From contig JAZUML010000003.1 in assembly GCA_045603565.1 (NCBI GenBank), positions 13,818-77,817 of the forward strand: 64,000 bases of DNA. Direction: 5' to 3'. Of this stretch, positions 432 to 64,000 are shown one piece after another. Source of the DNA: Candidatus Nanosyncoccus sp. Lineage in GTDB: Bacteria; Patescibacteriota; Saccharimonadia; Saccharimonadales; Saccharimonadaceae. The notes beneath the pieces are model-generated. The model was not told the DNA's origin. It made no database searches and saw only the letters and a program-made list of their open reading frames with translations. Numbering within the stretch: position 1 is the stretch's first letter; each line of letters begins with the position of its first letter. A program made the translations under genes and the position numbers.

Positions 432-1331
432 ATGGAACCAAGCGCAGAACAGGCGCCAGCCCCACAAGGCGAAGCTAATATTCAAACCCCAATCTCGCCA
501 GAGCCAATAGAGCCGGTAAAATCAAAAAACACCAAAACCCTTACCTGGATTTTTGGCATTTTAGCAGTCATCGCTCTCGTCGCCACCGGAGTTTTTGCCT
601 ACCTCTATTTCACAAGTCAACCCCAACCAACGCCAACCAGTGATACGCCAACCACTATAATCGAACCCACCGACGATGTTCAGGCATCATCTATCCCTAC
701 CGCAGCGGAAGTTGCACAACTCTTAGAAGACAAATATGATTTTAGTGCAGAAGAAAGATATTTCTGTATTGGAGCACGAGACATAGTCTGTGGCATTAAT
801 AATTTTGATACTGATAAAAAATTACAATTTATTATCGGACATGCACCAGAGACCTTATTTACTAATGAAAGATATGTTGATGTGTCGTACATAAGAAACA
901 TAAAATACGACGATTTAAATAAATTATATAACGACTATTTCGGTTCACTAGAGAATATCAATAAAGAAGATCACGACTTTGAAAATAGTTATTTGATTGG
1001 TATGAAATATCTATCAGAGAGTGACAGTTTTGATATTCAATTTAAAGACGGGCTCGGTGGGACTACAACCGTAAGTGTATTTAATAAAGTTGTGGAAACT
1101 AATGAGAGTGAGAATGGTTTTGTGGCAACTATTATATCAGTGACCATCAATAATGTCGTCAGTTCTACTGAGGAACCATTTTCAGGAAATTCGGTTGATG
1201 GGCAAAAGCTGTATCAGATGGGGATTCCGTCTGAAGATGTAGCTGAAATTCAAGAAAGTCTTTCTGCTTATCACTTTAATTTTCTTGAAGAGAACGGTGA
1301 GCATAAGTTAATTTCAATCGAAAAACTCTAG
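432..1331 (+). CDS. Hypothetical membrane-anchored secreted protein
   Basis: AGGAG RBS; Pro/Glu-rich N-terminus, one TM helix (WIFGILAVIALVATGVFAYLYF), Pro/Thr linker, acidic extracellular domain. Confidence 0.75.
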   Translation: MEPSAEQAPAPQGEANIQTPISPEPIEPVKSKNTKTLTWIFGILAVIALVATGVFAYLYFTSQPQPTPTSDTPTTIIEPTDDVQASSIPTAAEVAQLLEDKYDFSAEERYFCIGARDIVCGINNFDTDKKLQFIIGHAPETLFTNERYVDVSYIRNIKYDDLNKLYNDYFGSLENINKEDHDFENSYLIGMKYLSESDSFDIQFKDGLGGTTTVSVFNKVVETNESENGFVATIISVTINNVVSSTEEPFSGNSVDGQKLYQMGIPSEDVAEIQESLSAYHFNFLEENGEHKLISIEKL

Positions 1332-2464
1332 TCTTCAATCGATATTCTCGGGTAAATATTAAGGGAGTATGGGTCGGTCGGCTCTACGCCGGACTCAATC
1401 TCGAAATAGCACGCTGCGGATACCATCGCCCCGTTATCACCCGAGAGCGAAGGAGCAGGGAAATACGCATCGGGCAAGGCTTTTCTTAGTTCTTCGTTTG
1501 CGCTCACTCCACCAGCGACGACAATAGACTTCACGTCTGGATACATTTCGCACGCTTTATCTAGTTTTTCAATCAAAATCTCAACTGCAGTCTTTTGGAA
1601 CGATGCCGCAAAATCACAGACTTGCTGTTCGCTTAGCAGTTCTTTCAATTTATGCGACGGGTACGATATTGGCACTCCCACCTCTTTTTGTACAGCCCGA
1701 AGAACCGCAGTTTTTAGTCCGGAAAACGAAAAATCCAGCCCTTCTACCTTTGGGTGTGGTAATTTGTATTTCGCATCGTTACCTCCTAGAGCTGCTTTTG
1801 CAATCGATGGTCCTCCCGGATATGGCAACCCCAAAATTTTCGCCACCTTATCAAAGCACTCCCCTACCGCATCATCTCTTGTCGTCCCAATAATCTCAAA
1901 CTGATTGTGTTCCCGCATATACAAAATCTGTGTATGTCCCCCACTTACTACAAGTGCAAGTAGTGGAAATGATGGATGGCAATCAGAAATAACACTTTCG
2001 AGACCGTCCGCGACTAACGAGGAGCGGATTGAGCGAGCTCGCCCCGTAACGACGGGCGAGAGCGAGCGTGTCGAGGAAGTGTTGTTTTGATTGCCACCAC
2101 CAAGCCAATTTGCATACACATGCGATTTCAAATGATGCACCGCATATAGTGGTTTATTGTGTAAGATCGCCAGAGTCCTCGCCGTCAGTGTTCCAATCAA
2201 GAGGGAACCAAGTAACCCCGGCGCATGCGTCACCGCAATCGCGTCAATATCATCCCAACCACAACCCGCATCAGCCAAAGCCTTATCAATTACCGGCATC
2301 ATCGCCTCGAGATGACTCCTCGCTGCTACTTCAGGTATCACTCCCCCATATTCTGCAAAAATATCAATTTGGGAAACCACGACATTAGACAAAATCTCCG
2401 CCCCATTATCGACCACGGCCGCCGCTGTTTCGTCACAACTTGTCTCTATCCCCATAATCTTCAT
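1328..2464 (-). CDS. tsaD: tRNA N6-adenosine threonylcarbamoyltransferase TsaD, with a ~40-aa in-frame palindromic insertion
   Basis: GIETSCDETAAAV, GGVIPEVAARSH, HHLKSH metal motif, VSGGHT, DDAVGECFDK, FSFSGLKTA, DNGAMV. Confidence 0.96.
   Translation of the reverse strand: MKIMGIETSCDETAAAVVDNGAEILSNVVVSQIDIFAEYGGVIPEVAARSHLEAMMPVIDKALADAGCGWDDIDAIAVTHAPGLLGSLLIGTLTARTLAILHNKPLYAVHHLKSHVYANWLGGGNQNNTSSTRSLSPVVTGRARSIRSSLVADGLESVISDCHPSFPLLALVVSGGHTQILYMREHNQFEIIGTTRDDAVGECFDKVAKILGLPYPGGPSIAKAALGGNDAKYKLPHPKVEGLDFSFSGLKTAVLRAVQKEVGVPISYPSHKLKELLSEQQVCDFAASFQKTAVEILIEKLDKACEMYPDVKSIVVAGGVSANEELRKALPDAYFPAPSLSGDNGAMVSAACYFEIESGVEPTDPYSLNIYPRISIED
1977..2096. repeat. Family A palindromic element, in frame within tsaD (120 bp)
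   Basis: Arms 1977-2001 and 2071-2096 are imperfect inverted repeats; core 2007-2058 matches 23050-23101 at 42/52 nt ungapped. Confidence 0.9.
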
Positions 2465-10481: not shown

Positions 10482-11042
10482 ATGTACGGACCAACAGATC
10501 TAAAGAAAAATACACTCATTACTTTAGACGGACAGCCGTATAAGGTGGTGGAATATTCTCAAAAAGTCATGGGCCGTGGCGGCTCGATTGTTAACGTCAA
10601 GGTCAAAAACTTAATCACCGGCGCACTTTTACCCAAAACATTCAAAGGGCAAGAAAAGATCGAACCCGCCGAGGTAACTACTCGCAAGGTTCAGTACCTT
10701 TACAAGGATGACGAAAAGTTTTATTTCATGAATCCAGAAAGTTTCGAACAATATGAACTTCCAGCCGATATGGTAGGCGAGTCCAAAGATTACATGAAAG
10801 ATGGAGACGAAATGGAAATCCAGTTCTATAATGGCACTCCAATTAATCTCGTACTACCAAAGAATCTTTGGCTCGAAGTAGTTTATACCGAGAATGCCGT
10901 AAAGGGCGATACTACGAGTTCTGTTATGAAAGACGCCAAACTTGAAACAGGCATCGTAATCAAAGTTCCTGCTTTTATCAAAGAAGGCGATATCGTATCA
11001 GTCGATACGGAGTCTGGTGCTTACCGTGAGCGTAAAAAATAG
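10482..11042 (+). CDS. efp: Elongation factor P (loop MGRGG)
   Basis: KVKNLITG, YLYKD, VKGDT, KVPAFIKEGDIVSVDTESGAYRER; start set at MYGPTDLKK. Confidence 0.94.
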   Translation: MYGPTDLKKNTLITLDGQPYKVVEYSQKVMGRGGSIVNVKVKNLITGALLPKTFKGQEKIEPAEVTTRKVQYLYKDDEKFYFMNPESFEQYELPADMVGESKDYMKDGDEMEIQFYNGTPINLVLPKNLWLEVVYTENAVKGDTTSSVMKDAKLETGIVIKVPAFIKEGDIVSVDTESGAYRERKK

Positions 11043-11679
11043 AGGGTATTACAAAATTGAAGGTGCAGCTCGCGCCTTCAATTTTGATTTCAAAAACAAA
11101 ATCGTATTAGACATCGGTTCATCTACTGGAGGTTTCACTCAATACGCCTTAGATCATGGCGCTAAAAAAGTCATCGCCATAGAAAAGGGAACCAAACAAA
11201 TGGCACCCTCACTCCGCCAAGACCCCCGTGTCGAACTTCACGAAAAAACCGACATCTTTGACGTAAAAACAACAGAACTGTCTTCTTCGGGACGCTCCTC
11301 GCGTCCATCTTCATGGGGCTCGTCGCTGAGTCCTCGTAGCGACTGCGGATTCCCCTCAGAAGACAATTCTGTTGTTTTTGATGTTATTGTAGCTGATGTT
11401 TCATTTACTAGTCTTACAAAAGTTTTAGCTCATACCAAGGCAAATTTAGCGAGCGAAGCCACTAAATTTCTCGTAATGTTAAAACCCCAGTTCGAGGCCA
11501 GGCCAGATCAACTCAACAAAGGCGTTATCAAAAACGAGTCAATTCGTCGCGACATTATCAAACAATTCGAACAATGGCTCAAAGATCACGATTTTGTCAT
11601 TATCAAAAAACGCGACAATCTCTTGAAAGGGAAGACCGGAAATCAGGAAAGATTTTATTATTTAACACTTGCAAAATAA
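11026..11679 (+). CDS. TlyA-family SAM methyltransferase lacking the S4 domain, with a ~35-aa palindromic insertion
   Basis: VLDIGSSTGGFT, DVSFTSL, MLKPQFEA, GKTGNQERF; start codon uncertain (GTG 11017 or 11026). Confidence 0.85.
   Translation: MSVKNRGYYKIEGAARAFNFDFKNKIVLDIGSSTGGFTQYALDHGAKKVIAIEKGTKQMAPSLRQDPRVELHEKTDIFDVKTTELSSSGRSSRPSSWGSSLSPRSDCGFPSEDNSVVFDVIVADVSFTSLTKVLAHTKANLASEATKFLVMLKPQFEARPDQLNKGVIKNESIRRDIIKQFEQWLKDHDFVIIKKRDNLLKGKTGNQERFYYLTLAK
11265..11379. repeat. Family A palindromic element, in frame within the tlyA-like gene
   Basis: 22-bp arms 11265-11286 and 11358-11379 (21/22 complementary); core CCATCTTCATGGGGCTCGTCGCTGAGTCC resembles the reverse complement of 23050-23101. 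Confidence 0.88.
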
Positions 11680-22062: not shown

Positions 22063-23001
22063 TTATTTTGTTTCCGAATGAAACTTCTCATGTATCTCTT
22101 TTAGATGCGCATCTGTCACGTGAGTATATATTTGTGTCGTAGAAATATCTGCATGCCCTAGCATCGATTGCACTGCACGAAGATCCGCACCATTCATCAA
22201 AAGATCAGTCGCAAAAGAATGTCGGAGTGTATGCGGAGAAACATGCTTGGTGATACCAGCCAATCTCGCATATTTTTCAACTATTCTTTCCACCGAACGC
22301 GCAGTAATTCGGCGATAATTTCCGGAAGTATCTACCGCCTGAGTGTTACGCGAATTATTCAAAAACAAAGCCGGCAGGGAATCACTTCGTGCGTCCAAAT
22401 AATCGCGTACGCGATCTGCTGCCGATTGGCTAATAAAAATCGGTCGATCCTTACTTCCTTTCCCCCTCACCATAAACTCACGTCGCTCTAGATTAATCGA
22501 ATCACGATTAAGTCCCACTAATTCTGAAACCCGCAACCCACCAGAGTACAATAGTTCGATAATCGCCCGATCTCTTAGTCCTGACTCGGTCGATAAATCT
22601 ATCTGTTCCAACATATCTTCCACTTCATCAAAATGCAAAAAAGATACCTGTTTTCGTATCACGTGCGGCAAATCCACGAGGGAAGGATCCAATGATTTAA
22701 TATCTCGTCTAGCTAAGTATTTCAAAAAACCGCGCAATGCAATCAGATGATAAGCTTGAGTAATGGTTTTTAAATCATCTTCGCCCTTCTCAGAACCATA
22801 ACGATTTAGCTTAATTCTATACTTTCTTAACAATTCTTTTGTAATATCAGACGGCTTCATCTCGTCTTTATTCAAAATTTCTAACGAAATCTCCACAAAT
22901 CTTTCCAAGTACAACCTGTAGTTTTCAATCGTCTTTTTACTTCTCCCCGCCTCTATCTCCAAATGCTCCAGAAAATCATTAATCAGATCATAAATATCCA
23001 T
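22063..23001 (-). CDS. XerC/XerD-family tyrosine recombinase
   Basis: RDRAIIELLYSGGLRVSEL, GKGSKDR, HTLRHSFATDLL, LGHADISTTQIY. Confidence 0.95.
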   Translation of the reverse strand: MDIYDLINDFLEHLEIEAGRSKKTIENYRLYLERFVEISLEILNKDEMKPSDITKELLRKYRIKLNRYGSEKGEDDLKTITQAYHLIALRGFLKYLARRDIKSLDPSLVDLPHVIRKQVSFLHFDEVEDMLEQIDLSTESGLRDRAIIELLYSGGLRVSELVGLNRDSINLERREFMVRGKGSKDRPIFISQSAADRVRDYLDARSDSLPALFLNNSRNTQAVDTSGNYRRITARSVERIVEKYARLAGITKHVSPHTLRHSFATDLLMNGADLRAVQSMLGHADISTTQIYTHVTDAHLKEIHEKFHSETK

Positions 23002-23017
23002 ATCTATATTATATCAG

Positions 23018-23140
23018 AAGAAAATTAGAATGTTACCTTCTCGGGGGCTTCCGCGACCAACGGGGAGCGGACTGAGCGACTGAGCCCCATAACGATGGGT
23101 GCGAAGTAGCATACCCCGAAAGGTATATTCTAATTTTCTT
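23018..23140. repeat. Family A palindromic element, intergenic between the divergent xer and ndk genes
   Basis: Arms 23018-23039 and 23120-23140; core homologous to the tsaD, tlyA and polA copies. Confidence 0.9.
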
Positions 23141-25153: not shown

Positions 25154-25997
25154 TCGTTAGCCCCATATATTTTAATACTAATCTATCAATCTCCGTCTGA
25201 CCGTTTTCATCTTCTATTAGCATTTCATTTAGTACTTCATTAAAGGCTTCTAGCAATTCGGTCTTATCCTTGTTCACGGCTATTGCGTAAGCCTCTTCTA
25301 CCGGATAGTCCTCTTCACGGGTTGGCCCAGAATAATATAACGGTAACGCGTCTAGTTCTGGATTCTTCTCAACAATATATTTCGCAGCGAGTTCATCCGC
25401 TATTGCAAAGTCAATCATGTGCGCCTTGATAGAATCTGCTGCTAATTGATGCGAATCGATTCCTTTGATTGTTGTATTAGTGCCAGACAGTACACCGTTT
25501 TCAATCTCATCTTCTACGAAAATGTATCCAGTACTACCGATTTGCGATCCCAACCTTGCGCCATCCAGAGCTTCCCACACTACATGATCATCGCGTAGTG
25601 ATGGTGGCAATTCGCGGTCAAAAATCACATATTGCACCGAATCGTAATACGGAACTGTGAAATCAACCTTTTCCGCCCTTGCTGGTGTAATAGTTAACCC
25701 CGCCGCACCGGCGTCTGCAATTCGTCCAGCCTCTACATTATCGATGATGACATCAAATTCAACATTTTTGATCTGTATTTTCTTATCCAACTTCTCTGCG
25801 ACTCTGTTTACTATTTCTATATCAACACCTACGATTTGTCGATTCTCATAAAACTCAAAAGGCGCAAAAAATGCATTCGTCTCAACTACATAATCATAAT
25901 CCGTCTCATCCTGAATAGTAAACCAAACGCTTACGCCCATCCCTGCCGTTACCAACAGAAATACAATTATAGCAATGGCGCGTTTAACCTTAACCAT
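25146..25997 (-). CDS. Amino-acid ABC transporter substrate-binding protein (family 3)
   Basis: FAPFEF...VGVDIEI, AGLTITPARAEKVDFTVPYY. Confidence 0.9.
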   Translation of the reverse strand: MVKVKRAIAIIVFLLVTAGMGVSVWFTIQDETDYDYVVETNAFFAPFEFYENRQIVGVDIEIVNRVAEKLDKKIQIKNVEFDVIIDNVEAGRIADAGAAGLTITPARAEKVDFTVPYYDSVQYVIFDRELPPSLRDDHVVWEALDGARLGSQIGSTGYIFVEDEIENGVLSGTNTTIKGIDSHQLAADSIKAHMIDFAIADELAAKYIVEKNPELDALPLYYSGPTREEDYPVEEAYAIAVNKDKTELLEAFNEVLNEMLIEDENGQTEIDRLVLKYMGLTNE

Positions 25998-26030
25998 AAT
26001 ATAATTATATCACACAAAAAATAAAAAAAA

Positions 26031-34006: not shown

Positions 34007-34983
34007 GACGCTTACTAATTATTTATAATCCTCGCTCGTCTCGTTTTTCTGATGTTAAAGACGAGGTCCTTAGTCGTCTAACGGAGCTAAAAGGCTACAT
34101 GGTTGGAAAATATGAAGTCGCTAACACCGATGTTGACGACAATGCTAAAAAGCTTGCCAAAATCCTCAAAAACGACGATCTAGTAGTTGCTGCAGGGGGT
34201 GACGCCACGGCCGTCATTGCTGCTAACGCAATCCTGCAGTCGGACAAAAACATCACTCTCGCCGTTCTCCCGTATGGTAACTTCAACGACCTCTCTCGTA
34301 CTCTCGGAACGGAAACTTTAGAAGATGTCGTTACATGGACGGGTGGCGTCGCTGGGGGGACCCCCGCCGCACGCAGCCGTGAGGCGAGTACGGCGGGGGA
34401 AACTGCGACGACAGGACTCGTCCAGAAACTATATCCTCTCGAAATATACATTGATGATAAGTTTTTCCGTTACGCTACTTGTTATGTCACCATCGGTATG
34501 ACCGCCGAGGCCGTTGAATTATTCGATAAACCTAAAGTCAGGAAAAAGCTCAAAACTTCCTCGGGTCGCTCCTTCGGCTCATATCTAAGTCTTGCGGGTT
34601 GGTATTTCAAGAACCGTCATCGCAAAACATTTTTGCCCGAGTTCAAGCTCAATGGCGAATTGCAGCACCGCAAAACGTCCGACTACGCTGCTGTCAACGG
34701 TAGCTCAATGGCTCGTGTTATGAAAGGTGGCGATGACTATCAGAATCCCACAGTCTTTCGTAGCGAAACCGACCGCTTGACTAGTTTTTGGCGTTTAGTA
34801 AAACTACTAACGAAAAGCATACTCTCTCGAATTCCAGGCTCAGAAACCAAAGGCGACATTTTGGAATTCATAAGACCATCCACCGTCGAATTACAAGCTG
34901 AAGGCGAGTATACGACTTTTGAGAACATTAATAAAATTGAAATCAAGAAAGGCAAAAAATGTCTGAAGGTAGTCAAGAAATAG
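34003..34983 (+). CDS. Diacylglycerol/lipid kinase family protein with a ~30-aa palindromic insertion
   Basis: IIYNPRSS, AAGGDATA, LPYGNFNDLSRTLG, EGE C-terminal motif; ATGA overlap with the upstream gene. Confidence 0.85.
   Translation: MRRLLIIYNPRSSRFSDVKDEVLSRLTELKGYMVGKYEVANTDVDDNAKKLAKILKNDDLVVAAGGDATAVIAANAILQSDKNITLAVLPYGNFNDLSRTLGTETLEDVVTWTGGVAGGTPAARSREASTAGETATTGLVQKLYPLEIYIDDKFFRYATCYVTIGMTAEAVELFDKPKVRKKLKTSSGRSFGSYLSLAGWYFKNRHRKTFLPEFKLNGELQHRKTSDYAAVNGSSMARVMKGGDDYQNPTVFRSETDRLTSFWRLVKLLTKSILSRIPGSETKGDILEFIRPSTVELQAEGEYTTFENINKIEIKKGKKCLKVVKK
34333..34427. repeat. Family B palindromic element, in frame within the lipid kinase gene
   Basis: ACATGGACGGGTGGCG...CAGGACTCGTCCAGAA; ends match 45887-45974. 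Confidence 0.88.
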
Positions 34984-35768
34984 AGCAAATCGTTAAATAT
35001 ATGAAGTCGCATTGGCCGTCCAATGTTAAACCAGAATGGCAAGTCGGTCTCGCCGAATATCCTGGCATCCTCAAAAAGGCATTAGCAGATTTAACCATGG
35101 CTGCGACTAAAAATTACCATCTCATCCGCATAGCAGGCGTCTCTGGTTCTGGTAAAACCACTCAGATTTTACCCGCCGTTGAAGCGTATTGCGAAAAAAA
35201 CAATTTCGAGCCAATTCTAATGGCTGCACGTCGTTTTGTAGAGTATCATCCGCACTTTGAAGAAATCAAAGAATACTATGGTGAAGAGAACTTACGCAAA
35301 AACACTGACGAATTCTGTACTATTATGCTATTCTTAACGCTTTCTGCATTGATGAAAGATGGTTACGACATTGTTTTAGACGTCACCTTATTAGACCCAG
35401 AAATGGAAGCAATTTTACTCAAAATGGTCAAAACAGAAAACTACAAGTTCTTAATTCTCATGATTGCCGTTTCACCTACCGTCACTGAAAAATACCTTAG
35501 CGGTCGTGCTTGGCGCCATTCTAAAGCCACTGAACAAGAATTTATCCGAGCCACATCCGAGGCCCTAGCCTTTTATGCCGAAAACACACCTGATACACAC
35601 ATCATTATCTGGAGCGTCTATGACAAACCGCCAGTTTACGACGGTCCAATCAAAGATTGTATCGATATATTTAGCGACTATTCAAATAGGGAAGCACTAC
35701 CAAAATCTGATGACGACGAGCGCCGCGACGCTAAAATCGATTATCTTACCAAATTAGAGTTGATTTAG
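34959..35768 (+). CDS. Zeta-toxin-family P-loop kinase
   Basis: IAGVSGSGKTT Walker A, FVEYHPHFEEI, DIVLDVTL. Confidence 0.65.
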   Translation: MSEGSQEIEQIVKYMKSHWPSNVKPEWQVGLAEYPGILKKALADLTMAATKNYHLIRIAGVSGSGKTTQILPAVEAYCEKNNFEPILMAARRFVEYHPHFEEIKEYYGEENLRKNTDEFCTIMLFLTLSALMKDGYDIVLDVTLLDPEMEAILLKMVKTENYKFLILMIAVSPTVTEKYLSGRAWRHSKATEQEFIRATSEALAFYAENTPDTHIIIWSVYDKPPVYDGPIKDCIDIFSDYSNREALPKSDDDERRDAKIDYLTKLELI

Positions 35769-37596: not shown

Positions 37597-40050
37597 ATGA
37601 AAAAGCTGGTCTTAATTGACGGAAAATCGGTTTTTTACCGAGGTTATTATGCAATGGGCGCACTCAGCCTTCCAGACGGTACGCCGACCGGCGGAGTATA
37701 TGGTTTTGCCGCTATCGCCATGGAAATCGTCAAAAAAATCAATCCCACCAAAATAGTTGTGGCTTGGGACTCCAAAACTTCTACCTCCAAACGCCGCGCA
37801 ATTTATCCGGAGTATAAAGCCGGTCGCGTTAAGCCAGGCGAAGATTTTTATGCCCAAATCCCACTTTTAAAGGAACTAATTCAAGATTTAGGTTGGAGTT
37901 TTGTTGAAATTGATGATTATGAAGCCGATGATATTATTGGCACGCTTTCAAAACAAGCCGACGAGACCTTAGATCAAAACGGCAAATGTGAGTACGAAAC
38001 ATTTATTATTTCTTCCGATCTCGATATGCTCCAAATAGTAGATAGCAACACCCATATGTGGCGCATCCTCAAGGGGTTTACTAACATTGAACAAATAAAT
38101 GTTCCAGAAATCGAAGCCAAATACGGCATCAAAAAGTCTCAATTCTTAGACCTCAAAGCCCTGAAGGGCGATTCGTCCGACAACATCCCCGGCGTACCCG
38201 GTATTGGCGAAAAAACCGCCGCCAAGCTTTTGAATGAATACAAAGATTTAGACGGTATATATCATAATATAGATAAAATTACCGGTTCAACCAAAGCCAA
38301 ACTCGAAGCAGGCGTCGCCTCCGCCCTCATGTCCAAAACTTTAGCTCAAATCATGTTTGACGCTCCTGTCTACCTAAACGACATCCCCGACTTCATATTC
38401 GACCGCGACCGCATCATTGCTGGCTTGAAAAAACTCCAATTCAACTCTCTCATCCGCAAAACTAGTCAAGAGGGCAAAGAAGCTGCAATTTCGAGGGGAT
38501 CCGGAGCCTGGCAAGGCGAGGACGAGCGCGTCGCCCCCGTGGCGACCGCCCCCCGGGACGCGGACGACCTCTGGTCGACGGGTGGCGACGACGCGCCCCG
38601 AGAAAGTGCTGATTCTTTGCCTGTCGATACTATTATTGATTGGAACATCAAATCTCTGATGCATCACGACGGAAAAATCGCTTCCGAAATCCTGCACGGC
38701 AAAAACTATTGGGATCTCGGCCAAGCAGAATTCTTACTCAATCCTCTCGAACGTGGACAATCAGATTTATATGACCCTATGGATTTTAAAACTGCTTATC
38801 AGGTTCAGCACAGGGAACTAAACAAGCTCCCTAGACTATATAATATATACAAAGAATTTGATTTGCCCCTAATTCCGATTCTTTACAAAATGGAAAAGCA
38901 GGGCATGTTAATCGACCGAGAATATTTCAAAAACCTCCAAGTCGAATACACCAAAGAAGTCGCCGCGCTTGAGCAGGATATTCAAAAACTCGCCGATACA
39001 GAATTCAACGTCAATTCTCCGATTCAGCTTTCCGAAGTGCTATTTTCCAAGCTCGAACTCCCAACCAAGGGCATCAAAAAGACCACTCGTGGCTATTCTA
39101 CTGGAGCAAAAGAGTTAGACAAACTCAAAGACCTCCATCCTATTATTGCCAAAATTATCGAATACCGCGAAGCGGCTAAGCTTCTTAACACTTATATCAT
39201 CCCAATTCCAGGCCTTGCGGGCGAAGACGGTCGTATCCACACCACTTTTACCCAAAATGTTACCGCTACTGGGCGCTTAAGTTCCAAAGATCCTAACCTC
39301 CAAAACATTCCAGTTCGTACCGACGAAGGCAAACGCATTCGTACTGGCTTCATTGCACCAGAGGGCAAAGTTTTGGTCTCGGCTGACTATTCTCAATTTG
39401 AGCTCCGTCTTGCCGCGATTCTGTCTGGTGATCAAGCCCTAATCGATGATTTCAATCACGACGTGGATATCCACACCAAGACCGCTTCAGAAGCCTTCAA
39501 AGTCCCGATGGACAAAGTCACCAAAGCCCAAAGACGCGCCGCCAAAGTCATTAATTTTGGTATTCTTTATGGCATGAGTGTCAAAGGTCTTTCTGACGCC
39601 GCCAAAATGCCAATTTATGAAGCAAAACGATTCATTGATAATTATTTTGAACTTCGCGCCCCAATCAAACAAAAACTGGAAAGCATCCTAAAACAGGCTA
39701 GGGAAGAAGGCTTTGTCGAAACTTTCTATGGTCGCCGTCGCCCTACACCAGACGTCAAATCCAGCAATTTCTTGATTCGCCAAGCCGCTGAGCGCGCCGC
39801 TCAAAATATGCCAATTCAGGGCACTGAAGCCGACTTAATGAAACGCGCTATGATCAAGGTCGATCAAAAGCTTCCCGAGGGCGCTAATCTCGTTATGCAA
39901 GTGCACGATTCTTTAATTGTTGAATGCGATAAATCTCAAGCCAAAGCAGTCGCTAAGATTTTGAAGACCGAAATGGAGTCTGTTGCCCCCGAGCTAGATA
40001 TCAAACTCGCCGTCGAAATCTCCACCGGTCAAAACTGGGGCGAACTCTAA
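37597..40050 (+). CDS. polA: DNA polymerase I with a ~50-aa palindromic insertion in the interdomain linker
   Basis: LIDGKSVFYRGYY, YEADDIIGT, GDSSDNIPGVPGIGEKT, TGRLSSKDPNLQNIP, DYSQFELR, NFGILYG, QVHDSL. Confidence 0.97.
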   Translation: MKKLVLIDGKSVFYRGYYAMGALSLPDGTPTGGVYGFAAIAMEIVKKINPTKIVVAWDSKTSTSKRRAIYPEYKAGRVKPGEDFYAQIPLLKELIQDLGWSFVEIDDYEADDIIGTLSKQADETLDQNGKCEYETFIISSDLDMLQIVDSNTHMWRILKGFTNIEQINVPEIEAKYGIKKSQFLDLKALKGDSSDNIPGVPGIGEKTAAKLLNEYKDLDGIYHNIDKITGSTKAKLEAGVASALMSKTLAQIMFDAPVYLNDIPDFIFDRDRIIAGLKKLQFNSLIRKTSQEGKEAAISRGSGAWQGEDERVAPVATAPRDADDLWSTGGDDAPRESADSLPVDTIIDWNIKSLMHHDGKIASEILHGKNYWDLGQAEFLLNPLERGQSDLYDPMDFKTAYQVQHRELNKLPRLYNIYKEFDLPLIPILYKMEKQGMLIDREYFKNLQVEYTKEVAALEQDIQKLADTEFNVNSPIQLSEVLFSKLELPTKGIKKTTRGYSTGAKELDKLKDLHPIIAKIIEYREAAKLLNTYIIPIPGLAGEDGRIHTTFTQNVTATGRLSSKDPNLQNIPVRTDEGKRIRTGFIAPEGKVLVSADYSQFELRLAAILSGDQALIDDFNHDVDIHTKTASEAFKVPMDKVTKAQRRAAKVINFGILYGMSVKGLSDAAKMPIYEAKRFIDNYFELRAPIKQKLESILKQAREEGFVETFYGRRRPTPDVKSSNFLIRQAAERAAQNMPIQGTEADLMKRAMIKVDQKLPEGANLVMQVHDSLIVECDKSQAKAVAKILKTEMESVAPELDIKLAVEISTGQNWGEL
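38473..38621. repeat. Family A palindromic element with an expanded central hairpin, in frame within polA
   Basis: 26-bp arms 38473-38498 and 38596-38621; GC-rich core TCGAGGGGATCCG...CGAGGACGAGCG resembles the tlyA copy. Confidence 0.82.
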
Positions 40051-40129
40051 ACTTATCAGATTTCTTTACAAGTTGAAGCCCTGGCGTTATTATTAGTATG
40101 TGTGTTGTGCACATACTGAAAGGGAAAAT

Positions 40130-41104
40130 ATGGATAAAAGTATAGAGATCTACAAAATTCATGAAGGCGAAATTGTTTTTCGCGTCGATGCAGACAAAGA
40201 GACCATTTGGACTACACAGGAACAACTTTCAAATCTTTTTGGTGTAGATCGTACCGTGATTGGTCGTCATTTGCGCAATATTTTTCGCGACGGAGAATTA
40301 GACGAAAATTCAGTATGTGCAAAAATTGCACATACTGCCACAGACGGCAAAACTTATCAGGTCAAAATGTACAATCTCGACGCCATTATCTCTGTTGGTT
40401 ATCGTGTCAACTCCAAAAAGGCCACCGATTTTCGTATTTGGGCTACCAAAGTTCTCCACCATTATGTTATTGACGGCGTTTCGGTTAACGAGCGTCGTTT
40501 AAAAGAACTCGATGCCAAAAAACTCCACGAAATCGAAGGCGCCCTCGGTATTGTCAAGCGCCTTGTTGCCTCTTCCGATCTTTCCGCTGATGAAGCTGGC
40601 GGCGTGCTAGAAGTTATCACTAAGTACGGCCCGAGTTTTAAGGCCCTTAAAGAATACGACGAAGGCCACATCTCTTTTGCAAAAGGGAAGAAGGCCACCA
40701 AAATCATTTCCAAAGACGACGGAATTAACATTATTAAAGAACTCAAAAAATCCGTCAAAGGCGACGACTTATTTGGCAAGCCGCGTGGCGAAGCCTTTGA
40801 ATCGTCACTCAGTGCCATCACTCAGACTTTCGATGGTAAGGATGTTTACCCCTCCATTTCCGAAAAAGCTGCCAACCTCCTCTATCTTATCATCAAAGAT
40901 CACCCCTTTTATGATGGCAACAAACGCATTGGCGCTCTGCTTTTTGTAGTCTTTCTCACTATCAACGACTATCACCTCACCAAAAATGGCGAAACCAAAA
41001 TTTCCGACCGCGCTCTCACCGCCCTCGCCCTCTTAATTGCCGAATCAAATCCCAAAGAAAAAGGGCTACTAATAGCCCTCATCTGTAAACTTTTGGAAAA
41101 TTAA
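40130..41104 (+). CDS. RhuM-family DNA-binding domain fused to a Fic/Doc domain
   Basis: YNLDAIISVGYRVNSKKATDFRIWAT (RhuM); HPFYDGNKRIG (Fic motif); start set at MDKSIE. Confidence 0.88.
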   Translation: MDKSIEIYKIHEGEIVFRVDADKETIWTTQEQLSNLFGVDRTVIGRHLRNIFRDGELDENSVCAKIAHTATDGKTYQVKMYNLDAIISVGYRVNSKKATDFRIWATKVLHHYVIDGVSVNERRLKELDAKKLHEIEGALGIVKRLVASSDLSADEAGGVLEVITKYGPSFKALKEYDEGHISFAKGKKATKIISKDDGINIIKELKKSVKGDDLFGKPRGEAFESSLSAITQTFDGKDVYPSISEKAANLLYLIIKDHPFYDGNKRIGALLFVVFLTINDYHLTKNGETKISDRALTALALLIAESNPKEKGLLIALICKLLEN

Positions 41105-45877: not shown

Positions 45878-45886
45878 AATATATCT

Positions 45887-45974
45887 ACATGGACGGGTGG
45901 CGGACATGGAGGGGGTCCCCCCAAATTGTTACCAATTTTGGGGGAGGAGAATGTCCGCCAGGACCCGTCCAGAA
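45887..45974. repeat. Family B palindromic element, intergenic rpsU-adk
   Basis: TGGACGGGT/ACCCGTCCA and GGCGGACAT/ATGTCCGCC perfect stems; ends match 34333-34427. Confidence 0.88.
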
Positions 45975-46006
45975 TATGATATAATTTCCTTAAAGGAGAT
46001 TTTTTT

Positions 46007-46600
46007 ATGATTATATTATTTGGTTTAGCAGGTTCAGGTAAAGGAACACAGGGGAAGGCTCTATCCGAACTTTTCGGCTGGCGTTGGCTTTCGGTTGGCG
46101 ATGTTATTCGTCAAACCGGCGAATTCAAAGAACTTACCGACAAAGGTGAGCTAATCCCAGACGAAAAAGTAATCGAATTAATGGATAAGCAGATCAACAA
46201 AGCCGAAGCAGAAGGTTTTGATGTGATATTAGATGGCTATCCTCGTAATCAGGCTCAAGCCAAATATATCGTAGATCATATGCCAGAAAAGATCGACGGC
46301 GCTCTAATTCTTGAAGTCCCAAAAGAAGAACTAATCGAACGTTTGGCGTTGCGCGGTCGCGATGACGATAAAGAACGAGCCAGCATCGAACGTCGATTCG
46401 ACATCTTTGAACAAAATATTAGTTCAATTTTACCTCTGTTAGAGTCCAAAAACATTCCTATTGAACGCGTAGATGGCGTCGGCACAGTAGAAGCTGTAAC
46501 CGACCGTCTAGTAGAAGTTGTTCAAAAAATCTGCCCGAATGCTACAATTCAAAACGACGATGTCAATGGTGGAGAAATCGAGAAAAGTTATGGTGAATAA
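46007..46600 (+). CDS. adk: Adenylate kinase (short LID)
   Basis: GLAGSGKGTQ, SVGDVIR, GELIPDE, LDGYPRN, RGRDDD. Confidence 0.94.
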   Translation: MIILFGLAGSGKGTQGKALSELFGWRWLSVGDVIRQTGEFKELTDKGELIPDEKVIELMDKQINKAEAEGFDVILDGYPRNQAQAKYIVDHMPEKIDGALILEVPKEELIERLALRGRDDDKERASIERRFDIFEQNISSILPLLESKNIPIERVDGVGTVEAVTDRLVEVVQKICPNATIQNDDVNGGEIEKSYGE

Positions 46601-47372
46601 AGATACCGCCGACACCAAGACTTTGCAATCCAAGATCACTGCCATGCGCGAAGGCGGCAAAATCATGGGCAATCTTTTAAAAGACCTCGAAAACTATGTC
46701 AAGCCCGGCATGACAGGGAAGGAAATTGACGCTTGGGTCCGCCAGGAAATCGTTAAACGTGGCGCCACCGTAGCGTACGATGATTTAAAAGAGAAATTTC
46801 CAGGAGCAATCTGTATTTCCATTAATGACGAATTGGTTCACGGCGCCCCTAAGGATGAACCCCTAGAAGAGGGCGACAAAGCTTCTTTTGACCTCGTCAT
46901 CGGTTATAAAGGCTACTATACTGACTCCGCTTTTACAATGATAGTTGGCGAAAAAGGCTCACCAGCCGTTAAAAAAATGATTAATATTACCAAAGAATCT
47001 CTCTGGGCCGGCATTGAGCAAGTTAGGCCCGGCGCCCATATCGGCGATATTGGCCACGCCGTCGAAACAGTCCTAAGAAAAGGTCATCTCGGCGTAATAG
47101 AAAACTACATCGGCCACGGCATCGGCAAAGAAATGCACGAACCGCCCGAAGTCCCCAATTATGGCAAAAAAGGTCACGGCTACAAACTAGTTGAAGGCGA
47201 TACTATTTGCATCGAACCAATGTCTTGTCTTGGTAAACCCGCTAATTACGTAGACAAAGATGACAACTGGAGCGTCAAAATGAAAGACGGCTCCATCGGC
47301 TGTCACTGCGAACACACCATTCTCGTCACCAAAGACGGTTACGAAGTGCTAACACTAGCAGATGGCGAGTAA
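46590..47372 (+). CDS. map: Methionine aminopeptidase type I
   Basis: CISINDELVHG, D..YYTDSAFT, GHGIG..MHEPP, IEPM, HCEHTI. Confidence 0.96.
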   Translation: MVNKDTADTKTLQSKITAMREGGKIMGNLLKDLENYVKPGMTGKEIDAWVRQEIVKRGATVAYDDLKEKFPGAICISINDELVHGAPKDEPLEEGDKASFDLVIGYKGYYTDSAFTMIVGEKGSPAVKKMINITKESLWAGIEQVRPGAHIGDIGHAVETVLRKGHLGVIENYIGHGIGKEMHEPPEVPNYGKKGHGYKLVEGDTICIEPMSCLGKPANYVDKDDNWSVKMKDGSIGCHCEHTILVTKDGYEVLTLADGE

Positions 47373-47462
47373 GAATTCCTAAGATGTCCTGCGGGACATA
47401 AAGACTTGGCCCGAGTGACCCGGAACGTGCCCGAAGGGCACGCTTGGAATTCTTACTCGCCA
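47363..47462. repeat. Family C palindromic element overlapping the map stop codon
   Basis: Perfect 17-bp inverted repeat TGGCGAGTAAGAATTCC/GGAATTCTTACTCGCCA enclosing two small hairpins. Confidence 0.85.
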
Positions 47463-47487
47463 ACACAAAATGTGTTATAATTAACTC

Positions 47488-48720
47488 ATGGATAACGATA
47501 AACGTTTTGTCACAGGCCTTGACGTCGGAACAGAAAACGTCCGCGCCGTCATCGCCACTGTCTCAAAGGGCGGGGAAGTATCAATTGTTGGCTATAACGA
47601 AGGCAAGTCTGCCGGTATGCGCAAGGGCATTCCTGCCAACCTTACTGGCCCAGCCGAAGCTATCGACCGCATGCTTGGCGACGCTGAGCGCATGGGCGGT
47701 TACGATGTACGAAGCGCTTACGTTTCTATCAATGGTTCTACTGTTATTTCTACTCATACCGAAGGCATGATTGCTGTTGGCGCCGTCGAACACGAAATTG
47801 ACGACGAAGACTTAAATCGCGTCGAAGATGTTGCCGTGACCGGTCGCATCCCGGCCAATCGCGATGTTTTGGATGTGATACCGTTAGAATATGCTCTAGA
47901 CGGCCAAGGTGGGATTAAGGACCCGCTCGGCATGGCTGGCGCCAGGCTCGAAATGCGCGCCTGTGTAATATCTGCCCTTACACCAAATTGCGAAAACTTA
48001 AAACGCGCCACTATGACTGCCGATGTCAAAGCCGAGAGATTAGTCCCTAGCGTCGTCGCTGCCGCAAAAGCTGTCTTGAATGAACGTCAAAAAGAAAACG
48101 GCGTTGCCGTAGTTGACCTCGGCGCCGCTACTACTTCAGTAGCAGTTTACGAAGAGGGCGATTTACAATACGTTGGCGTAGTGCCAGCTGGTTCCAATAA
48201 CGTCACTAATGATCTTGCAATCGTTCTTGCTATCGAGCCAGAACTCGCCGAAGAGATTAAGACGCGATTTATAACAGGAGATTTTGATCACGAAAAAAGT
48301 GTCGCTATTAAAGTAGGGAAGAACAATGAACGTACCTTTGATCGCAAAGAAGTTGAAGAAGTTGTAAAAGCTCGTCTAGAAGAAATTTTCTCCGAAATTC
48401 GCAAGAAATTGAAGACTGCTAAATATGATCAACGCCTACCGGAGGGAATTATTCTCACTGGAGGTGGTGCCAAGATGCGCGACATTGAAATATTCGCCAA
48501 AAAAGCCCTCGAAGCCGCCGTCAAAGTCGGCATACCATCTGGTCTTAACGGCGTCGCTGAAGCTATCGAAAAGCCCGAATTTGCTACCGCCGTTGGACTC
48601 GCTTTGTTTGCTGCAGAAGAAAGTCAATATTCTGCACCAGTTTCCAAAAAATCCGCAAAATCCAAAAAGTCCGCCAAAACCTCTGGTGGATTCCTCAAAA
48701 AAATCTTCTCAAAATTCTAA
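47488..48720 (+). CDS. ftsA: Cell division protein FtsA
   Basis: GLDVGTENV, SAGMRKG, VDLGAATT, AEEIK, ILTGGGAKM, FATAVGL. Confidence 0.96.
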   Translation: MDNDKRFVTGLDVGTENVRAVIATVSKGGEVSIVGYNEGKSAGMRKGIPANLTGPAEAIDRMLGDAERMGGYDVRSAYVSINGSTVISTHTEGMIAVGAVEHEIDDEDLNRVEDVAVTGRIPANRDVLDVIPLEYALDGQGGIKDPLGMAGARLEMRACVISALTPNCENLKRATMTADVKAERLVPSVVAAAKAVLNERQKENGVAVVDLGAATTSVAVYEEGDLQYVGVVPAGSNNVTNDLAIVLAIEPELAEEIKTRFITGDFDHEKSVAIKVGKNNERTFDRKEVEEVVKARLEEIFSEIRKKLKTAKYDQRLPEGIILTGGGAKMRDIEIFAKKALEAAVKVGIPSGLNGVAEAIEKPEFATAVGLALFAAEESQYSAPVSKKSAKSKKSAKTSGGFLKKIFSKF

Positions 48721-48833
48721 AAAACGCTTGTGTTTTTACTTCTGTTGAGTTATAATTTTAATAGAGTGTAGAGTTAAACAAAAAGATATCAATTTTAAGG
48801 GTTGTACATATCAAAAAAGGCTAAATTCAAATA

Positions 48834-60177: not shown

Positions 60178-60924
60178 TTAGATGAATTTCGGTAACGAGT
60201 CGAACTTCGCTTTTAGCTCTGGATCGAGGACTCCTCTACCGTCGCGAAGTGATGGGGCGTAGATGTTTTTGCATGTCAGGAATCCGGCGAGGTTCAACTC
60301 GTTTAGAATCCACGAGCCTCGCGCGAGATAGGTCTTGCCATCCAGATAGACGAACGCGACCAGGACCTTGTTTGTGCAGTAATGTCCGAGCTTTTCGCGG
60401 CCGGTCTCGTTTAGAATACCGACTGATTGAAGAGCTGGATAGTACGTAGACTCTATGCCATTCACTTGAATTCGCATACCTTTTTCGGGAACTTGCAGGC
60501 ACTTGCTGAGCGCACGATCGCTGATCTCACGGATGTGATGAGCGGCGCAATATGCGCGGCACTCTTTTTCGAACGCTTGTTCGTACGACTTCTGTGCGGC
60601 TGCGCGAAGCTTAGCCCATTTGTCGGCTTGCTCGAACGGTAGATCGCCATTAGAGCAGGGGACGTAGAACCATTCTTTGGTGAAGCCGGCATCTTCGAGG
60701 GTCTCTTCGGTCTCGTGCGTGTAAGGAGTGACGAAGAACTGGTTGTCGCAAATGTATGCGATGGTAGAGTTGTTCGTCGCGTAGACGGAACGACCATTGA
60801 ACTCGCCGATTGCTTCTGACATGTCGAGAGCTCCGATCCTATTGCCCTGATGAGGCCAGATGACCTTAGTACCCTCCTTGATCAGGATGCTGTTGCTTTT
60901 GAGCTCTTGCAGTGCTTCCTTCAT
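60178..60924 (-). CDS. Hypothetical protein, visibly higher GC, with an internal two-domain repeat
   Basis: AAGGAG RBS before MKEALQELK; IAYICDNQFFV...AGF...YVP..NG and VAFVYLDGKTY...AGF...YAP..DG halves. Confidence 0.7.
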   Translation of the reverse strand: MKEALQELKSNSILIKEGTKVIWPHQGNRIGALDMSEAIGEFNGRSVYATNNSTIAYICDNQFFVTPYTHETEETLEDAGFTKEWFYVPCSNGDLPFEQADKWAKLRAAAQKSYEQAFEKECRAYCAAHHIREISDRALSKCLQVPEKGMRIQVNGIESTYYPALQSVGILNETGREKLGHYCTNKVLVAFVYLDGKTYLARGSWILNELNLAGFLTCKNIYAPSLRDGRGVLDPELKAKFDSLPKFI

Positions 60925-61094
60925 TTGCTTCTCCTTTGCTTTTGGTGAAGGATGGTTGCGGCGTATTCCGCAACTCAGTCTAACCACTTTTATGATTAGG
61001 CTGAGTTGCAGAATATTAGGGGTGACTGTTAAGGTGCTGTGTATTTATATTATATCACGCTTGTGATATTTTGTCAATAGTGTATAATAGAGGT

Positions 61095-61916
61095 GTGAAT
61101 ATAATGTATTGTGGCGATAAAGGTATTAACAGGGGGGTTTTGGTATCGATTTTGTCGATTTTGAAGCATAACAGGGGTGTTTTACATTTTTATATTTTGA
61201 CGATTAATTACGAGAATACAGAGGCGTTTACTGAGAAGTCTGCGAAATTTTTGGATGAATTAGTGAAAAAAACTAATCCGAAGAGTTTTGTGAAACTAAT
61301 TGACGCTTCGGAAGTGTTTACGGCGAATTTGCCGTCTAAAAATATGAAATCGTATTTTACGCCCTGTTCGATGCTCCGGCTTTATGCAGATAAGGTGCCG
61401 GAAATTGCGGCTTTAGATAGGGTGTTGTATTTAGATTACGATGTGATGTGTCGGGGAGATTTGACGGAGTTTTATAATACGAATATGGAAGGAGTTGAGG
61501 CGGCGGGAGTATTGGATATTTATGGAAAGAATTTTTATCATTACCATGGTTTGTTCAAGTTTGATTATATGAACTCGGGAGTGATGTTGTTTAATATGGA
61601 AGAATGTCTAGAGACGGGAATGTTTGAAAAGGCCGTGACTCTATGTGCTAAAAGGTGGATGATGCTAGCGGATCAGGCGGCGCTGAACAAGAGTATTAGT
61701 GAACGGAAATTGATGCCGAGAAAGTATAATGAACAAGGAGAGAGACCTAGGGAAGATACGGTTTTACATCATTTCAGTAATAATTTTAAGTTTTGGCCGT
61801 TTTTCCATGTGCAAAAAGTGAAGCCATTTGAGATTGAGAAAATACATACTGTTTTAAAAATTACGGAATACGACGATATTTTGAATGAATACCGTAGACT
61901 AAAAAGTAATTTATAG
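61095..61916 (+). CDS. Glycosyltransferase family 8
   Basis: SILSILKH, MLRLY, VLYLDYD (DxD), YMNSGVML, ADQAALN; start likely GTG 61095. Confidence 0.9.
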   Translation: MNIMYCGDKGINRGVLVSILSILKHNRGVLHFYILTINYENTEAFTEKSAKFLDELVKKTNPKSFVKLIDASEVFTANLPSKNMKSYFTPCSMLRLYADKVPEIAALDRVLYLDYDVMCRGDLTEFYNTNMEGVEAAGVLDIYGKNFYHYHGLFKFDYMNSGVMLFNMEECLETGMFEKAVTLCAKRWMMLADQAALNKSISERKLMPRKYNEQGERPREDTVLHHFSNNFKFWPFFHVQKVKPFEIEKIHTVLKITEYDDILNEYRRLKSNL

Positions 61917-61992
61917 CATGAAATATCCTTTTTCGGACACGCTCGAGGGCGCTCGCCCAGGCTTATGGTCCTCAAAAGGATAATTCATGCTA
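61914..61992. repeat. Short family A-like palindromic element between GT8 and the acyltransferase
   Basis: 19-bp arms TAGCATGAAATATCCTTTT/AAAAGGATAATTCATGCTA; inner ends GACACGCTCG...GGTCCTCAAAAG match the tsaD copy (GACACGCTCG...GGTCTCGAAAG). Confidence 0.7.
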
Positions 61993-62002
61993 TTATATAT
62001 TT

Positions 62003-63938: not shown

Positions 63939-64000
63939 CCATATATTTATTATATCACAATATTAAAACTGCATTAAGATGATGCCACAAACTACAAGGA

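Follow-up and report, generated by a model that had tools for sequence, protein, structure and literature searches.

The 64,000 nucleotides analysed here, termed the window, are AT-rich (about 40-47% GC), and protein matches point to Candidatus Saccharibacteria of ruminant and other animal guts as their source. The window contains five to six GC-rich cores, each of which is closed by a near-perfect, AT-rich inverted repeat of 19-33 bp (Table 1). In element E2, which is situated in the gene of an FtsJ/TlyA-like methyltransferase, the arms AAAAACAACAGAACTGTCTTCT and AGAAGACAATTCTGTTGTTTTT flank a GC-rich core of 71 nt. Since the sequence GA-GGGG...CCCC-GA of this core is readable on the minus strand, the minus strand is the well-folding “pattern” strand at E2. 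The reading frames of tsaD, the tlyA-like gene and polA run uninterrupted through their elements.

Table 1. Coordinates of the elements in the window, their host and neighbouring genes, and the contrast family.
Feature	Position	Strand	Remarks
tsaD, host gene of E1	1328..2464	-	Pfam
E1, in tsaD	1977..2096	+	arms 1977-1999 and 2075-2096; core 2000-2074, GA..GA on plus strand
Host gene of E2, FtsJ/TlyA-like methyltransferase	11017..11679	+	ORF open across the element
E2 left arm	11265..11286	+	outer 13 nt, AAAAACAACAGAA, resemble host codons (KTKE) of the empty tlyA allele
E2 core, 71 nt	11287..11357	-	GA-GGGG...CCCC-GA readable on minus strand
E2 right arm	11358..11379	+	inverted copy of left arm, 21/22 paired
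xer, neighbour of E3	22063..23001	-	Pfam
E3, intergenic, xer/ndk	23018..23140	+	GA of left junction replaced by TC, giving Watson-Crick pairs
Contrast family, copy 1	34332..34427	+	GC-rich palindrome, conserved ends TGGACGGGT...ACYCGTCCA; in frame in DAGK-like ORF
E4, in frame in polA linker	38473..38621	+	20-nt arms; larger 109-nt core; junction GA-GGGG...CCCC-GA as elsewhere
Contrast family, copy 2	45886..45975	+	conserved ends; intergenic
E6, between map and ftsA	47363..47462	+	other core family of like architecture; 33-nt locus-specific arms
E5, intergenic	61914..61994	-	19-nt arms; short 41-nt core, GA-GGAC...GTCC-GA on minus strand

The original prediction described copies closed by long, near-perfect inverted repeats, and this was confirmed at all five loci that it quoted (the tlyA arms pair at 21 of 22 positions). 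The arms that it gave for tsaD, xer-ndk, polA and 61914 were found in place, its gene names agree with Pfam, and the arm at 61914 indeed begins at the TAG of the upstream gene (ORF 61071..61916). E6 was absent from its list. With loose criteria (17-nt arms, at most two mismatches and a spacer of 25-110, the true arms being far longer), five inverted-repeat loci are recovered from the window versus 0-2 from shuffled sequences. Folding relative to shuffles reaches z values of -7 to -9 in five of the six elements and of about -4 in the polA element. The cores of E1, E2 (reverse-complemented) and E3 share 65-68% identity (z 3.1-4.4), whereas the polA core is larger and related in part only, and the short core at 61914 is weakly related and has mainly the arm-GA-helix...helix-GA-arm junction in common with the others. 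The “conserved core” of the original prediction thus applies to three, arguably four, of its five copies.

A second family with conserved ends, which in their longer form read acaTGGACGGGT...ACYCGTCCAgaa, is present in the same window, so that conserved-end and variable-arm elements coexist. Other features of the window include a giant ORF of 1964 aa (48834-54728) with Listeria-Bacteroides repeat domains and internal repeats (D1, D3, D8) ~1.3 kb apart, and a zeta-toxin-like kinase gene (34959-35768) and a RhuM/Fic-domain gene (40100-41104) situated amid housekeeping genes. The motif CATAnnTTAATTATATCAC, which recurs beside tRNA genes and gene starts (2462-2491, 25995-26024, 63940-63969), looks like a shared promoter.

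Core anatomy, distribution and coding context

A scan with a degenerate pattern made from the most conserved hairpin yielded at least 118 loci, nearly all in Saccharibacteria/Nanosyncoccus MAGs from animal guts; the sources of the matches listed include cattle, sheep, goat, buffalo and deer. Among these matches, a closing stem is present in 109 of 122 analysable copies. The element is composed, in order, of an arm ending in YTTY, a GA dinucleotide, one strand of a 3-4 bp helix, hairpin 1, hairpin 2, the helix partner, a second GA, and an arm starting with RAAR. The core measures 71-77 nt, and the commonest arm length is 19-24 nt. The 3-4 bp helix covaries (GGGG/CCCC, GACC/GGTC, GACA/TGTC and others), as does the variable stem of hairpin 1, the loop of which is GACG or AACG. 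Hairpin 2 is nearly invariant and reads GAGCCCCGT-RAMG-ACGGGCGCGA. The two GA dinucleotides are opposed as a tandem G.A/A.G pair. We also note that the TC found in place of GA at the E3 junction (23041-23042) removes this tandem pair, as if the palindrome had been “perfected”. At the Rfam gathering threshold only tRNAs were detected, and searches with E1 and E3 at E-values up to 10 gave nothing credible. Viral contigs scanned with the core pattern contained no element, the three hits in high-GC phage contigs being due to chance. For Saccharibacteria or Patescibacteria, literature searches turned up no account of these elements.

Among the matches listed, 97 of the 109 stemmed copies (58 site groups) are situated inside a stop-free host ORF, defined as one with at least 25 open codons to each side of the element. 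Relative to the host gene, 65 copies are in sense and 32 in antisense orientation. Five of the six frames are in use; no copy uses the sixth, in which the hairpin 2 loop supplies a TAA or TGA codon. The in-frame copies and the avoidance of the stop-bearing frame suggest that the elements are translated and that insertions are filtered by selection. An intron, an intein or translational bypass was rejected, since every one of these insertions keeps the reading frame without a stop and none uses the stop-bearing frame.

Certain protein loops are entered time and again. In TlyA, the loop between HEKTDIF and PDVIVADVSF is either empty or occupied by elements with different arms; empty orthologues measure 183-190 aa and filled ones 216-224 aa, and the loop is always the same. 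The TsaD loop between YANWL and FPLL spans 6-8 aa when empty, and at least four core families occupy it across lineages. In L129 (610-1716), the nearest relative of the TsaD of the window (92% amino acid identity), a core of the E6 family (peptide TTCPAGTFRATRAKSSCPSE) takes the place of the E1-type core. This comparison points to replacement of one element by another at a single site. The polA site is filled in L007, L047, L085, L102 and L116 as well, with other arms. Upstream of the “empty” tsaD allele of L127, a DarT/NADAR (DarG-like) toxin-antitoxin pair is found (1-822).

The tlyA-like ORF of the window harbours a further hairpin just past the efp stop codon (11052-11086). Its 15-bp stem (CAAAATTGAAGGTGC, 5-nt loop, GCGCCTTCAATTTTG) encodes the conserved peptide YKIEGAARAFNF. 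L001, L002 and L004 have the same stem DNA and differ in the loop alone, although synonymous sites elsewhere are strongly diverged. This hairpin may be a conserved terminator or attenuator inside the coding sequence.

Origin of the arms

Comparison of copies with identical 61-nt cores (three in L081 and those of L095, L067, L050, L114 and L008) reveals that their arms share only about TTC beside the core, and where near-identical cores occupy different sites, the arms agree over only about 3-6 nt. Arm identity is 0.44 for near-identical cores versus 0.33 for random pairs. In a junction-anchored logo of 44 sites, ~1 bit per position is observed at positions 1-3, a weak signal at 4-6 and 12-14, and approximately none beyond 15. 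The inner 3-6 nt are biased toward YTTY on one side and RAAR on the other, and positions 12-13 are A-rich. A weak arm pattern, RGAATA...CTYTTC, is observed in the subfamily with 75-nt cores. In the window, the outer arms are no more similar to each other than shuffled arms are (z -1.2 to 2.0). The earlier description of the arms as unrelated was slightly overstated, since the innermost nucleotides are conserved. The weak shared pattern suggests that the inner arm reflects either a target preference or carry-over from the donor copy.

The palindrome borders match controls in how the lengths of their longest direct repeats are distributed. Since no target duplication beyond controls was found, two apparent cases were judged to be coincidental or local: TTTGAYGT, which encodes FDV...FDV, next to E2, and TAGAAAC/TTGAAAC in L002. 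The differing arms on identical cores, the position-limited logo and the absence of direct duplication at the borders argue against ordinary diverged terminal repeats. As far as these alignments tell, the mobile unit is the structured core of 71-77 nt, bounded by GA...GA.

Comparison with empty alleles, which the original prediction had proposed as a check, indicates that one arm often resembles host sequence. At tlyA, the empty allele (L004/L005) reads GT-AAAAACAAAAGAA-CCTGAT, and the allele of the window reads GT-AAAAACAACAGAA-CTGTCTTCT(core)AGAAGACAATTCTGTTGTTTTT-GATGTT. The segments AAAAACAACAGAA and AAAAACAAAAGAA are identical at 12 of 13 nt, which suggests that the outer 13 nt of the left arm are host codons and that the right arm is their inverted copy. 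At tsaD, the empty loops read LSIPDRPTF or LKTDNCPQF. Their length is that of the E. coli TsaD loop, and the empty state would therefore be ancestral. The arm segment ATTTCTGATTGCC (ISDC) of the window resembles the host loops GATAATTGCCC and ATTCCTGATCGTCC of the empty alleles. At both sites the short ancestral loop covers the outer 8-14 nt of the arm only; the inner 7-15 nt may represent donor-arm carry-over or a degenerate terminal repeat. In the case of LeuRS, the empty allele of L117 reads CAAGAGGCCTCTACAGCCTCTAAT at the place of the right arm GAAGATGGCTTTACAGCTTCCAAT of the filled L031, with 18 matches in 24 over the full arm (z=5.8). The insertion adds 96 nt net, the combined length of the core and a single arm, and the arm differs from the empty allele by 21-25%, under the 35% at fourfold sites.

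Across 32 filled/empty pairs, the model that fits best is the presence of one arm in 22, of both arms in 7 and of neither in 3. Similarity to the retained arm exceeds that of shuffles in about 13 of the 32, and one arm resembles the empty allele at z>=2 in 15 of 34 pairs, where ~1.5 would be expected by chance. One arm is thus probably host DNA, and the other its inverted copy. These counts, together with empty alleles of about one arm-length, favour the proposal of an inverted copy of one target flank, which is the best-supported origin of the arms; the original interpretation as a whole is partly supported. Very close relatives do not occur among the pairs, the best of which differs at 35% of fourfold sites; an empty allele could therefore be a secondary loss that left one arm behind.

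On balance, we lean toward the view that these elements are non-autonomous mobile DNA modules of animal-gut Saccharibacteria, in which the core alone is transferred and the closing stem is made from the target at each insertion. With one arm pre-existing and the other copied, each insertion would add one core and roughly one arm (mode 19-24 nt) and would leave no direct duplication.

Two palindromes deserve mention here. At the LeuRS C-terminal site of L086, the palindrome extends over ~45 nt, into the codons for the conserved NLCF and RHKTIK on the two sides, which suggests that the arms were extended outward where synonymous or tolerated changes permit. A coreless 23-bp palindrome with a 6-nt loop (60964-61015) at the 5' end of ORF 60178..60987 could be an operator, or arms that remain without a core.

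The pairing between the arms appears to be maintained as such, as had been proposed in the original prediction. Over 648 positions in same-site arms of different species, 420 are unchanged, 111 are changed on one side, 83 are compensatory with the Watson-Crick pair kept, and 34 are changed on two sides without a pair. Judged from these pairs, which are phylogenetically non-independent, compensation is far above independent drift. Selection on pairing, hairpin-templated conversion or re-creation of the arms at re-insertion may be its cause. The same 83 compensatory versus 111 one-sided changes would also fit ordinary MITE- or RPE-like elements with terminal repeats of their own, which diverged fast at each locus and were kept paired by concerted evolution (hairpin-templated correction) or selection. 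The conserved inner arm positions, the weak RGAATA box of one subfamily, and the agreement of the window and L128 arms at 20 of 21 nt, including the part that is not host-like, point in the same direction. This explanation is nevertheless unlikely, because identical cores elsewhere carry unrelated arms from about position 5 outward, direct target duplication is absent at the borders, and the empty alleles keep about one arm-length that resembles an arm, with the LeuRS gain corresponding to core plus one arm.

Flipping, replication and the mode of transfer

The core can be found in either direction between the same arms. In L001, the tlyA-like protein of which is 83% identical to that of the window, the arms are the same and the core is reverse-complemented; the element is 97% identical after the flip. 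Contigs of metagenomes X2 and X3 link position 11277 to 11366 on opposite strands, and those of X1 and X4 are in the orientation of the window. With the host gene as reference, the two cores point in opposite directions in 10 of 44 same-site pairs.

When copies at one site are compared between species, the median difference is 7% in the core and 28% in the arms, against 58% at fourfold sites. Insertion followed by simple decay would not lead one to expect such similar cores. L068 and L104 have identical, mutually flipped cores at a fourfold difference of 64%. Ectopic gene conversion was rejected as the cause of this conservation, since identity is 88% between the tsaD core of the window and that of L128, against 68% for E1 and E3 within one genome. 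Two explanations remain, namely selection in place, or loss and re-insertion at few sites faster than species diverge. Scattered empty alleles among filled ones, several core subfamilies per site and the flips fit rapid loss and re-insertion.

The two strands of the element are not equivalent. The better fold is that of 5'-GAG...GCCCCGTAACGACGGG...CGA in 75 of 81 copies, and G.T mismatches exceed A.C mismatches in the arms by 39:20 on the core strand versus 30:26 on the mRNA-sense strand. The well-folding strand coincides with the strand of negative GC skew in 77 copies versus 20 (p=5e-9), or 41 site groups versus 12 (p=8e-5), and this bias is equal for sense (45:12) and antisense (24:6) copies. 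In the window, E1, E3, E4 and E5 obey the rule and E2 is the exception. Because the orientation follows GC skew whichever way the gene points, it appears to be tied to replication rather than transcription, with leading and lagging strands assigned by the usual GC-skew rule; this favours a DNA process coupled to replication over RNA processing. The bias may also arise because one replication template tolerates the strongly folding strand better than the other does. By the usual rule, the minimum of cumulative GC skew marks the replication origin. The skew of the window turns from negative to positive at ~46000-50000, where the cumulative minimum is situated; no dnaA is nearby, and the genes on both sides are mostly on the plus strand.

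The mechanism that we consider most likely for transfer of the core alone with a target-made stem is the following. The transferred unit would be the core of 71-77 nt, which consists of GA, a short covarying helix, two capped hairpins, the helix partner and GA. A nascent strand at the fork would switch template onto a core exposed as single strand, through a short YTTY/RAAR microhomology where arm and core meet, and copy it. The folded core would then return the 3' end to the same nascent strand, on which snap-back synthesis would reverse-copy ~20 nt of host flank before the strand rejoins its own template. The AT-rich stem would in this way be built at each insertion from one arm of pre-existing target and its inverted copy. 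Only insertions that are in frame and stop-free in permissive protein loops would survive, after which the core may flip between the arms while arm complementarity is kept. Mutation by template switching, through which inverted repeats are lengthened or made perfect, is well established (PMC7202029, PMC3820800). More tentatively, and with the balance leaning somewhat against it, the elements may embody a new mode of DNA mobility, in which a ~73-nt core without terminal repeats of its own makes a 20-bp stem by inverted target duplication during a replication-coupled template switch, and re-invades few essential-gene sites so often that cores stay near-identical across synonymous-saturated species. 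Our literature searches found this insertion signature described for no other bacterial repeat.

For the transfer step, an HUH-type enzyme at the junctions is a serious alternative. In its full form, this explanation has a trans-acting enzyme of the HUH/Y1 type, similar to IS200/IS605 TnpA or to RAYT, cut at both GA junctions and transfer the core as single-stranded DNA (“peel and paste”), the arms arising later by palindrome extension in replication. The absence of conserved terminal repeats and of target duplication, the structured ends, the junction preference and the replication-biased orientation are typical of single-strand transposition of the IS200/IS605 type (PMC5027513, PMC6006769). 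The 64-kb window, however, contains no HUH/Y1 transposase gene that we could find, and tblastn of ~1 Mb of related loci with IS200 TnpA and RAYT queries, a weak test on a small sample, gave no match. Very young copies with identical cores already have full arms of 19-20 nt, and the folding strand lies on the C-rich strand, which may or may not be the active one for a comparison with the orientation of IS608. We regard this explanation as improbable in its full form.

Much less probable is an RNA-level role in which selection sees base pairing alone, such as that of a stability element or RNase III processing site in the mRNA. The RNase III-type stem, which the original prediction gave as an example, is not supported. 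The arms and core helices do co-vary, conservation of the element far exceeds that of synonymous sites, and one RNA-seq contig bears a core plus arms (RNA runs X25-X28, with sparse coverage of the window). Against this, the elements occur in both orientations (65:32) and are read in five of six frames, the excess of G.T mismatches tracks the core strand rather than the mRNA strand, the orientation tracks GC skew whatever the gene direction, and there is no Rfam match. Cleavage of tsaD, polA or leuS mRNA would presumably also be costly. Entry of the core into the loops of host-gene inverted repeats already present, with both arms pre-existing, is very improbable: some empty alleles are weakly palindromic (AATTATT-GAT-AATAATT in mnmA of L067) and the model is best in 7 of 32 pairs, but these seven have long empty intervals, most empty alleles hold one arm-length only, and the tsaD (6-8 aa) and tlyA (4-5 aa) loops are too short for two 22-nt arms.

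If the arms are made from the target, inverted target duplication with neither terminal repeats nor direct duplication would be a signature that standard repeat and MITE finders miss, and the spread of a selfish repeat would be linked to replication template switching. Ultra-small CPR genomes, generally seen as streamlined, would then tolerate dozens of insertions of 30-40 aa in essential enzymes such as TsaD, PolA, LeuRS, MnmA and TlyA. The repeated entry of several core families into the same loops provides a natural experiment on protein-loop permissiveness. The elements also matter in practice. Metagenome (DNA) contigs end inside them and core depth is well above that of the flanks; the elements thus break metagenome assemblies, and they inflate apparent protein divergence.

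Relation to known repeat families

Rickettsia palindromic elements (RPEs) share several features with the present elements. They are short, palindromic, non-autonomous repeats of a reduced-genome, host-dependent bacterium, located in frame in unrelated housekeeping genes and translated as extra loops. The consensus of RPE families runs along the whole element, stems included. This is in contrast to the elements described here, in which the core alone is shared and the stem is locus-specific, and in which a GC-rich core in an AT-rich genome flips and follows GC skew. The host phylum is also different, here Candidatus Saccharibacteria, and the two are probably unrelated in sequence. Translated-through insertion in frame, as described for RPEs (PMC10969869), is present here in the 97 of 109 copies that lie in stop-free ORFs.

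MITEs such as Correia, ERIC and Nezha are likewise short, multi-copy, hairpin-forming and non-autonomous. MITEs possess family-wide terminal inverted repeats and direct target-site duplications, whereas neither conserved terminal repeats nor target duplication was found here. IS200/IS605 elements and the REP/REPIN-RAYT system resemble the present elements in their lack of classical terminal repeats and target duplications, their DNA hairpins, their short target preference and their fork-related orientation (PMC5027513, PMC6006769). Of these traits, a replication-biased orientation (77:20 with respect to GC skew) and the absence of terminal repeats and target duplication are observed here, and no transposase was found in the 64-kb window or, by tblastn, in ~1 Mb of related loci. 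REPs are extragenic and have conserved palindromes. The copies described here are, in contrast, mainly intragenic, and their closing palindrome is not conserved. We know of no IS200/IS605 or REP/RAYT element that derives a stem from its target site.

Mitochondrial GC clusters, double-hairpin elements and repetitive hairpin-forming elements resemble the present family as GC-rich hairpin modules in AT-rich reduced genomes, which are sometimes located in coding or rRNA regions. The double-hairpin elements of Allomyces lack flanking duplications (PMC4478555, PMC2800124), and the GC clusters of yeast have AG/ACT target duplications (PMC4478555). The differences are that their stems are conserved within the family and that the host is an organelle. 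In quasipalindrome template-switch mutagenesis, one arm of an inverted repeat is replicated from the other, which offers a mechanism for lengthening or perfecting such repeats (PMC7202029, PMC3820800). The process is known from existing inverted repeats, where it causes point mutations or changes in short tracts. To our knowledge, it has not been implicated in the spread of a repeat family or in the creation of 20-nt arms.

By the features that define those families, terminal repeats and target duplication in the case of MITEs, the elements are neither MITEs nor REPs. As hairpin repeats placed in frame in a reduced genome, they behave like mitochondrial GC clusters or RPEs, and there is a substantial chance that the way in which their arms are made is a new mechanism.
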